DNA of 64,000 bases. Source: Octopus vulgaris (Eukaryota). Position 1 is the stretch's first letter; the number at the start of each line of letters is the position of its first letter. The notes below the pieces were generated by a model, which worked only from the letters and a program-made list of their open reading frames with translations, did not search any database and had not been told where the DNA came from. A program made the translations under genes and the position numbers. The stretch is taken from NCBI GenBank assembly GCA_951406725.2, contig OX597834.1, forward strand, positions 12,276,001-12,340,000. Direction: 5' to 3'. Shown here piece after piece: positions 41,630 through 43,222 of this stretch.

Positions 41630-41817
41630 TTATGTTTTTGCTATTGTTGTTGTTGTTGTTGATAGTGGTGATGGTGATGTGCGTGTTTGGAATTGTGTAG
41701 GGTGGGAGTTTTTCTTGATTGTGGGTTCGATGTTGCTGTGGTTGTTGTTGTTGTTGTCGCTGTGTTCGTTGTTGTAGATTTGATTGTAGCTGTAAAACCG
41801 TTGACGTATTATGTAGT

Positions 41818-41858
<41 letters not shown>

Positions 41859-43222
41859 TAATAATAATCGAAAAAGCTGTTGTGATGGTAGTATTTGTAG
41901 TGGTAGCAGTATGGGTTGTGGTTGTTGTTTTTGCTGTTTTGGATAGTGTTTTGGAGGTAGTGATAAGAGAGGTTGTGACGAAATTGAAGAAAGTGTAGAC
42001 GGAGGTAGAGGTGATTGCAAATTTGTTGAAGCTGTTTGCAACGATAGAAATTCCTATAGTTTAATAATAATAAGTATGTGTAGCACTTGTAAATCCTGTT
42101 GATCTTTTTATTGTTGCTGTTGAGGCTGCGGTTATATGAGCCGTTACGGTGATAGTTGCCGATGTATTTGTCGATGCAGGGGTGAGATTTGCTATCGTTA
42201 TTGCAAAAACCGTAGTAACAGCAGATAGAGCAATAGTTATTATTATTATTATTATTATAGTATAAGCGGTAGTTATCTAAATAGTGGTTTTGAAAATGAT
42301 ATTGCTGCTGTTGTAGTTGGTGGTACTGATTGTAGGTTTTAACGTGATCGTAATGGTGTCGTTGGCAGCGGTTTTGGTGGTAGTGCTGGCAAAAGGTCAG
42401 TGGATAGTGGCAGTGCAGGTAAAGAGTGTAGCAATTCTCGTGGTTTTGATGTTTGTTGTGAAGTTGATAGTGTTCGTATTGTTTCTGTTGGTATAACAAA
42501 ACGTCAGACGATGGTTTACAATAATCAGTTAGTAACGAAAAATGTGGAAATTTCGTGCAGAAATTTCTACCGCTTAACAAGAACAGCGATAACAAGAAAA
42601 ACAACAAATAGTGGAATATGATGGATTTAGTTGTAAAGAGGTAGGTGAAAAAGCTACAGACTGGGTTGCTGTTTTTGTTGTAGTTGGAAATGGCTATGAG
42701 TAAGTTGATGATATTAATGATAAGGATGATGGTGATGCTGTTAGCATTGGTGACAGATGTAGTGGTAGTTTTGAGGAAGTTAAAATTACTGAAGATGAAG
42801 ACAAATAAAATAAAAGAAGAGATGAAGAAAAGTGGGAAGAAAGAAGCGATAGAAACGGAAGAGACGAAATGATTTTGTTTGAATTTGTGATGCCTGGAAA
42901 ATAGAAAACATGAGCTTAATAGCGGAATAGAAGTAATACAGAATATGAAAAAATGAGTTTGTGAGATGTAGTGTCTGAAAAATTCAAGAGAAATTGAAGG
43001 GAAATCGAGTCTGGGAAGAGCAGACGACAGGGATAACACCACGTAAATTTTGTTGGCGGAAAGGGCTAAGTAAATGGAGGAGGCGACGGAAAGGAGGAAT
43101 GTGGAGTAGAGGAGTACGATTGAAGAAAAGTGGAAGGTTTGAATGCATTTCACTAAAGACAACAGGGCATTCAAGTTTTCTCCAAATTCATTGTAGTGGC
43201 CAGCTGCAGTAATAACAGTCAT
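41630..43222 (-). CDS. Orphan single-exon 530-aa ORF: hydrophobic N-half, His/Tyr/Asn/Gln/Cys-rich low-complexity C-half; function unknown
   Basis: ATG at 43222, TAA at 41630. By manual count about 42 stop triplets occur on this strand in the interval, all in the other two frames. Only trinucleotide repeats occur inside. No recognisable domain. Confidence 0.4.

Follow-up and report, generated by a model that had tools for sequence, protein, structure and literature searches.

A long open reading frame in a decayed triplet-repeat island of Octopus vulgaris is a candidate first cistron of a probable kainate-type receptor transcript

Why should a frame of 530 codons be open 4.2 kb upstream of, and on the same strand as, what appears to be the start of a glutamate receptor gene in Octopus vulgaris? 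The frame (41630..43222, minus strand; 537 codons from stop to stop) is the longest in the window, by which we mean the whole 64,000-nucleotide stretch of contig OX597834.1 that was analysed, and it might be a gene of its own, part of the receptor messenger or a by-product of its unusual composition. The reading that we prefer, with a probability of roughly 45%, is that a probable kainate-type receptor gene would have a single giant first exon of about 6 kb with the ORF as its first cistron, which would likely be translated and would throttle synthesis of the receptor. Elsewhere in the window, the end of a plus-strand frame at 4520-4879 reads like the N-terminus of a mariner-type transposase and a plus-strand frame at 50016-50555 resembles the end of a LINE reverse transcriptase, both identities being our assumption.

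Much of what the initial annotation had said of the ORF was borne out by direct counting. Its ATG at 43222 and the TAA ending at 41630 are both present; the roughly 42 stop triplets said to avoid its frame number exactly 42 (14 in frame +1 and 28 in frame +2); the product is indeed rich in Tyr, Asn, His, Gln and Cys (62, 61, 37, 28 and 19 residues, respectively); and the five or so hydrophobic stretches correspond to five 19-mers (residues 35-53, 91-109, 125-143, 160-178 and 200-218), all of which recur in Octopus bimaculoides, a sixth and marginal one (20-38) being absent from that species. The sole in-frame Met is codon 8 of the 537-codon open frame and its context is weak (TCA ATG A). The plus-strand frames opposite the ORF carry 30, 74 and 37 stops, and since all three are closed an origin as an antisense shadow is ruled out. 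The ORF is enclosed by a 2.4-kb island of decayed triplet repeats (41170..43600, minus strand), which is its likely raw material. The description of triplet repeats inside and dinucleotide runs in the flanks was right for the inside, but the nearest flanks (about 43260-43600 and 41170-41600) are also of triplet type and the dinucleotide runs start beyond them. Three parts of the frame can be told apart. The core (codons 1-287, 42362..43222) is open in four lineages and holds the five predicted hydrophobic segments within residues 35-218; codon 288 (42359..42361) is the only CGA of the ORF; and the Tyr/Asn/His/Gln/Cys-rich tail (41633..42358) is open in three Octopus species. The +1 frame of the 3' half of the island encodes Thr, Ile, Ala and Asn, and the tail is thus a shifted reading of decayed ACN/ATN/GCN triplet repeats. 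AlphaFold2 run on three sequences was uninformative on the fold (pLDDT 30.7), the ESM Atlas gave no usable match for the protein and Rfam gave no match between 36000 and 48000 of the window.

The argument by which the frame had originally been called improbable, (2/3)^36 under an equal-frame model, is invalid for 3-periodic sequence, although better nulls still mark the frame as unusual. In the shuffle check of ORF length that had been proposed, using k-let shuffles (k=2-6, on the ORF and on the island, 10 settings of 2000 shuffles each), none of the 2000 reached 500 codons in any setting, the longest being 476. Under block shuffles keeping triplet phase 15-22 in-frame stops are expected, and no shuffle of 5000 had fewer than 5. 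The genome background was made up of 100 stretches of 10 kb (1 Mb) of assembly G000 taken at round coordinates, a non-random sample whose 400 windows overlap. This 1 Mb contains eight frames of at least 500 codons, four of them simple repeats and four that read by inspection as retroelement-protein-like. None of its 149 triplet-type frames of at least 100 codons reaches 400 codons, and none of 35 complexity-matched triplet frames exceeds 230; the longest of the latter (L080, minus strand, offset 461, 230 codons) resembles what we take to be a real homeobox-gene exon with an OAR-like motif, and hence presumably no chance frame. Exponential extrapolation gives between 0.02 (matched frames) and 30 (all triplet frames) 537-codon frames per genome, of which the lower figure is too low because stretch L052 (G000:C21:12430001-12440000), outside the 1-Mb sample, holds a triplet frame of 427 codons (minus strand, offsets 4071-5352), so that the tail of the length distribution is heavier. 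The L052 frame, rich in Thr, Ser, Phe and Leu, is on the strand of the ORF, in a second triplet island situated about 115 kb upstream. By itself, the length of the ORF is rare and not decisive.

Searches for relatives returned very few. The ORF is single-copy in G000 (one match by DNA and one by protein). Two of 7994 candidate proteins were recovered, from O. sinensis (XP_036367778.1, 96% identity) and O. bimaculoides (A0A0L8FF34, 533 aa, 82%), and one of 1296 shorter proteins, a Logan record of 288 aa (P0004) which is 78% identical to the window protein and 77% to that of O. bimaculoides and is therefore an outgroup to both. A profile search of 1.84 billion representatives had the O. sinensis protein (P0001) as its sole match, and in Pfam no family scored above its cut-off, the best, PRT_C, falling below. 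These protein searches are blind to species in which the frame is broken. An origin from a transposon is ruled out by the single copy at both DNA and protein level and the lack of any Pfam family over cut-off. The ORF thus shows the taxonomic restriction without paralogue or family that is looked for in a gene of de novo origin. In RefSeq the O. sinensis sequence forms a separate locus (LOC118767392) with two isoforms, XP_036367778.1 (X2) being labelled 'DNA-directed RNA polymerase subunit beta''-like' and XP_036367777.1 (X1) 'uncharacterized'. An RNA polymerase beta'' identity was rejected, as Pfam finds no polymerase domain and there is no relative among the 1.84 billion representatives; the label is most likely a mislabel caused by low complexity. 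The isoforms differ only around the poly-Tyr repeat, which X1 skips and inside which X2 stops, probably an assembly or alignment artefact, and the end of the isoform other than XP_036367778.1 matches the end of the window protein. In the literature we found no paper on the locus (the O. bimaculoides model may figure in supplementary lists of cephalopod-specific genes) and none that combines octopus, upstream open reading frame and glutamate receptor, and the protein is present in databases only as an uncharacterized or mislabelled model.

The start Met is common to all four sequences: the window, O. sinensis (P0001/P0003), O. bimaculoides (P0002) and P0004. O. bimaculoides, whose lineage split from that of the window at least 34 million years ago (according to PMC10700109), differs by seven indels in codons 1-505, all in frame, and by two frameshifts, both in the last 120 nt, where its end follows the other two frames of the window. 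This clustering at the end of the ORF has a P of about 0.005 under even placement. Single-base runs of at least four number 33 in codons 1-505, with no frameshift, and three in the last 120 nt, with both. Among 493 compared residues 81 differ, and as 78 of the 81 are explained by one base change there is no hidden frameshifted stretch. On lineages other than that of the window 4.1-5.0 stops would be expected under neutrality and none was observed in the compared spans; taken apart, the test is weak for both core (P=0.07) and tail (P=0.15). The absence of Met gains from the ORF is not significant (1.6-1.8 expected). In a further set of reads, designated organism B, the net length change is 39 nt in both long contigs and none of 21 shared substitutions creates a stop. 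The Logan record ends just before the only CGA codon of the ORF, from which P0004 probably carries a TGA stop at codon 288; the shared unit would then be codons 1-287 and the tail looks dispensable in the P0004 lineage. The proposal that the frame is being kept open is therefore supported in four lineages as far as codon 287 and within Octopus as far as codon 505, the probable stop of P0004 speaking against the full length, and the suggested search of orthologues for frameshifts and stops had the same divided outcome, with indels in frame through codon 505 and, against this, two frameshifts beyond it and the probable P0004 stop.

The amino acids themselves drift almost neutrally outside one block, judging from the comparisons available. 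The 21 substitutions shared by three runs of organism B comprise four synonymous (308 sites) and 17 non-synonymous (1193 sites) changes, a dN/dS of about 1.1 on only 21 changes, and the flanks in organism B carry fewer changes than the ORF; a second run of organism A gave three synonymous and eight non-synonymous. Substitutions relative to P0004 are not conservative (mean BLOSUM -0.64 vs about -0.46 for neutral change), 13 of 28 changed hydrophobic sites remain hydrophobic where chance would give 52-55%, and V61E, V123D, L175H and L195H lie in or beside hydrophobic stretches. Relative to O. bimaculoides the changes are mildly conservative over residues 1-506 (P 0.01-0.06) but not in 1-288. The suggestion of a membrane protein gene is weakly supported, in that the hydrophobic stretches exist, but substitutions there are no more conservative than neutral ones. 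Conservation is uneven along the protein. A 150-residue window starting at residue 83 has seven differences from O. bimaculoides (0 of 5000 permutations as low), and in the near-invariant block, residues 198-233 (42524..42631, minus strand; the fifth hydrophobic segment plus the residues following it), one of 36 columns varies among the four sequences, as against 77 of 288 overall (permutation P 0.006 at width 36, 0.06 and 0.05 at widths 50 and 90). Codons 97-235 contain two of 33 nucleotide variants vs 8.7 expected (P=0.003), neither of them synonymous. Such unevenness fits protein constraint and DNA constraint alike.

Downstream of the ORF lies the probable first coding exon of a kainate-type iGluR (37314..37416, minus strand), 34 signal-peptide-like codons ending LVRI-G and followed by a strong phase-1 donor (TAG|GTAAGT) at 37313. 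The first coding exon of kainate receptors breaks at R-[IF]-G with a phase-1 junction. The 37416 exon is the sole match in the window to a signal-exon pattern that was built on it and that has nine matches in 2 Mb. Kainate-type exons encoding amino-terminal and ligand-binding regions (G000:C21:11644495-11644728, 11435680-11435898 and 11421006-11421125, all minus) are found 669, 878 and 892 kb downstream on the strand of the ORF, their best PDB match being GluK2 (E 7e-18), and from this arrangement we infer that the 37416 exon is spliced to them. The 37416 peptide itself matched no annotated protein in a weak search, no solved structure and no paralogous exon; the first exon of the receptor is absent from the annotated proteins searched. 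If the exon belongs, the kainate-type gene spans about 0.9 Mb (G000:C21:11421006-12313416, minus). Another iGluR (C21:10195649-10348102, plus), convergent with this gene, follows about 1.1 Mb beyond it. Four nucleotides before the receptor ATGATG an out-of-frame ATG opens an overlapping frame of 36 codons (37310..37420, minus), a possible brake on receptor initiation.

The 4.2-kb spacer between ORF and receptor ATG (37421..41629, minus strand) has 12 ATGs vs 41.6 expected with repeats masked, no AATAAA and no GTRAG; its raw ATGs number 16, each opening a uORF of at most 16 codons. Over the whole of 43219-37421 ATG is the most depleted of the 64 triplets (17 vs 54.8, O/E 0.31, repeats masked; 15 vs 38.8 with triplets masked too). 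An O/E as low as 0.31 occurs in none of the 400 background windows, and the controls gave 0.92 (plus strand), 0.85 (the upstream 1.1 kb) and 1.16 (intron). The lowest background window, L120 (G000:C28:10000001-10010000), a tandem satellite of uniform composition across 10 kb without AATAAA or GTRAG, was retained in the 400-window counts and left out of the C-skew-matched comparison. The depletion is also seen in the non-triplet part, 40332-37421 (8 vs 24.1), for which 35 C-skewed non-triplet windows pool to 1.06 with a minimum of 0.50, and directly after the ORF stop, in 41629-40333 (4 vs 15.1; 4 vs 8.3 with triplets masked). Within the ORF the scarcity is not diagnostic, as 13 C-skewed triplet windows pool to 0.76 and one is at 0.17 (P=0.07), and a leader that starts only after the ORF is therefore possible. 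Background windows likewise without AATAAA or GTRAG number nine and four of 400, respectively, and four ATTAAA are present past the stop (40984, 40527, 40109 and 39667). The C-over-G skew of 43219-37421 (0.46) exceeds that of all 400 background windows. On the minus strand of 37000-45000 an uninterrupted excess of C over G takes in the ORF as well as the receptor exon, and its sign changes at the donor at 37313.

Taken together, these properties make it likely that the receptor leader reaches up to the end of the ORF, and a single giant first exon starting shortly before the ORF would be their simplest interpretation. The weak first start and few intervening AUGs that a bicistronic or uORF-bearing messenger would have are both seen here, although 21 ATGs, one of them in strong context at 43191, are left between 43219 and 37421 and plain scanning to the receptor would therefore be very inefficient. 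A possible optional leader intron (37565..40332, minus) has a donor (AAG|GTACGT) at 40332 and a pyrimidine tract with CAG near 37565. Of 20 sequencing runs that contain the sequence none is listed as RNA and 16 are only guessed to be. X19 and X20, two runs guessed to be RNA, each have one contig record that extends from 43450/43483 to 41200 across the ORF stop (joints with sides under 30 letters at repeats were set aside); the records seen bridge only 43483 to 41200 and none joins the ORF to the 37416 exon. The earlier idea that the ORF is a giant uORF, or the first cistron, of a long iGluR leader thus gains independent support from a spacer poor in ATG, AATAAA and donors, but no joining transcript was seen. 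The acceptor proposed at 44355 is plausible as a motif, but the 1.1 kb behind this acceptor shows no depletion of ATG (13 vs 15.3) and includes an AATAAA at 44099, and nothing ties the acceptor to the leader. A search for the leader signature ahead of two other exons encoding iGluR amino-terminal regions, over 200 kb, gave no first exon. Only one island in that sequence is both poor in ATG and skewed towards C (L143), and it is a fresh triplet microsatellite, which calls for caution with the signature.

How else might these observations be explained? It is possible, if somewhat doubtful, that the ORF stands alone as an orphan gene of a single exon. It would likely have arisen de novo from T-rich triplet repeats, its product would be a multi-pass membrane protein under weak constraint and its RNA would end at an ATTAAA, while the receptor just downstream would have its own start and long leader. 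The evidence from the frame (shuffles, common Met and in-frame indels) applies equally to such a gene, and a functional protein accounts for the long frame better than repression alone. The locus that RefSeq gives the O. sinensis ORF, the recurrence of the five hydrophobic segments in O. bimaculoides, the near-invariant block and the ATTAAA at 40984 with three further ones all agree with it, as does the T-rich, transmembrane-first model (PMC7005711). Yet the scarcity of ATG begins directly after the stop and no AATAAA follows, the changes relative to P0004 are non-conservative even in hydrophobic stretches, and dN/dS relative to organism B, on its 21 changes, is about 1.1. A separate gene and a first cistron differ only in where the RNA ends. 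The RefSeq locus counts against the first-cistron reading, as does the fact that no annotated protein carries the 37416 exon, the latter from a weak search.

The near-neutral drift of the amino acids raises a further alternative, which we regard as distinctly unlikely, namely that the frame is untranslated or a by-product without function. It would then have become long by chance, in a decayed triplet island within a conserved promoter or leader, and would have survived because the indels there are mostly triplet slips; the near-invariant block would be a DNA or RNA element. Constraint on DNA would produce just the pattern of codons 97-235, where neither variant is synonymous, and the less changed organism-B flanks, the probable mid-frame stop of P0004 and the invisibility of broken frames to protein searches point the same way; the chance count per genome (0.02-30) also leaves room for it, given that the 427-codon L052 frame makes the tail heavier than the lower figure implies. 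Against it stand the sole in-frame Met at codon 8 of 537, kept in four lineages, the lack of any frameshift in codons 1-505 despite 33 runs of at least four when two occurred in the last 120 nt with three runs, and the 15-22 stops that phase-keeping nulls expect.

If the ORF is indeed a first cistron, the following course of events can be envisaged. The decayed triplet-repeat island would be the origin of the frame, its T-rich half giving hydrophobic helices and triplet slippage sparing the frame. Transcription would begin at about 43.3-43.5 kb and continue to the donor at 37313, and ribosomes starting at the weak-context ATG at 43222 would make a loosely constrained, predicted membrane protein. 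The long isoform would dampen receptor synthesis and keep receptor output low; the receptor might be made from it via leaky scanning with reinitiation, internal entry or the optional 40332-37565 splice, or else from a shorter isoform with a proximal start. Selection would then act on the open 287-codon core and on block 198-233 and not on most residues. A simple repressive uORF has no need of hundreds of open codons, and as repression alone does not require them the peptide core probably matters too. A bolder version, which we consider unlikely, is that an octopod five-helix membrane protein was built de novo from a decaying microsatellite in the kainate receptor leader and became the first cistron of a bicistronic neural mRNA. 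The 4.2-kb spacer, pyrimidine-rich and purged of AUG, would let ribosomes reach the receptor or enter there, and receptor output would be set by the orphan protein or by the act of translating it. If the mRNA is shared, translation in cephalopod neurons would have a level of control that can be tested, acting on a synaptic receptor of a learning model. If the gene is separate, it offers a clean example, and one that can be dated, of how microsatellite decay gives rise to a long protein whose frame is kept and whose residues are free. Under either reading the RefSeq polymerase label is wrong and the first exon of the receptor is missing from the proteins searched.

The known bicistronic mRNAs SNURF-SNRPN and MOCS2A/B have first cistrons of fewer than 100 codons that are conserved in sequence and lie near the second ORF. 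In octopus, as in those cases, an upstream ORF that is conserved, starts weakly and lacks any further Met precedes a second gene, probably on one mRNA. What sets the octopus arrangement apart is the length of the ORF (287-530 codons), its near-neutral residues and the 4.2-kb spacer; if the mRNA is shared, first cistron and spacer would be far longer than in these animal bicistronic cases. In LUTI regulation, as described in PMC8153250 and PMC6469420, a 5'-extended, uORF-bearing isoform from a distal start represses the downstream protein, and the long octopus isoform proposed here would likewise repress the downstream receptor. Inhibitory uORFs are present in LUTI leaders, whereas in octopus ATG is scarce in the spacer and a single very long frame has been conserved. 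A parallel for the protein itself is yeast YBR196C-A, the transmembrane-first case of PMC7005711, which shares with the octopus ORF lineage restriction, a T-rich origin, predicted transmembrane segments and weak constraint; by comparison, the octopus ORF is much longer, at least 34 million years old and probably derived from decayed triplet repeats.
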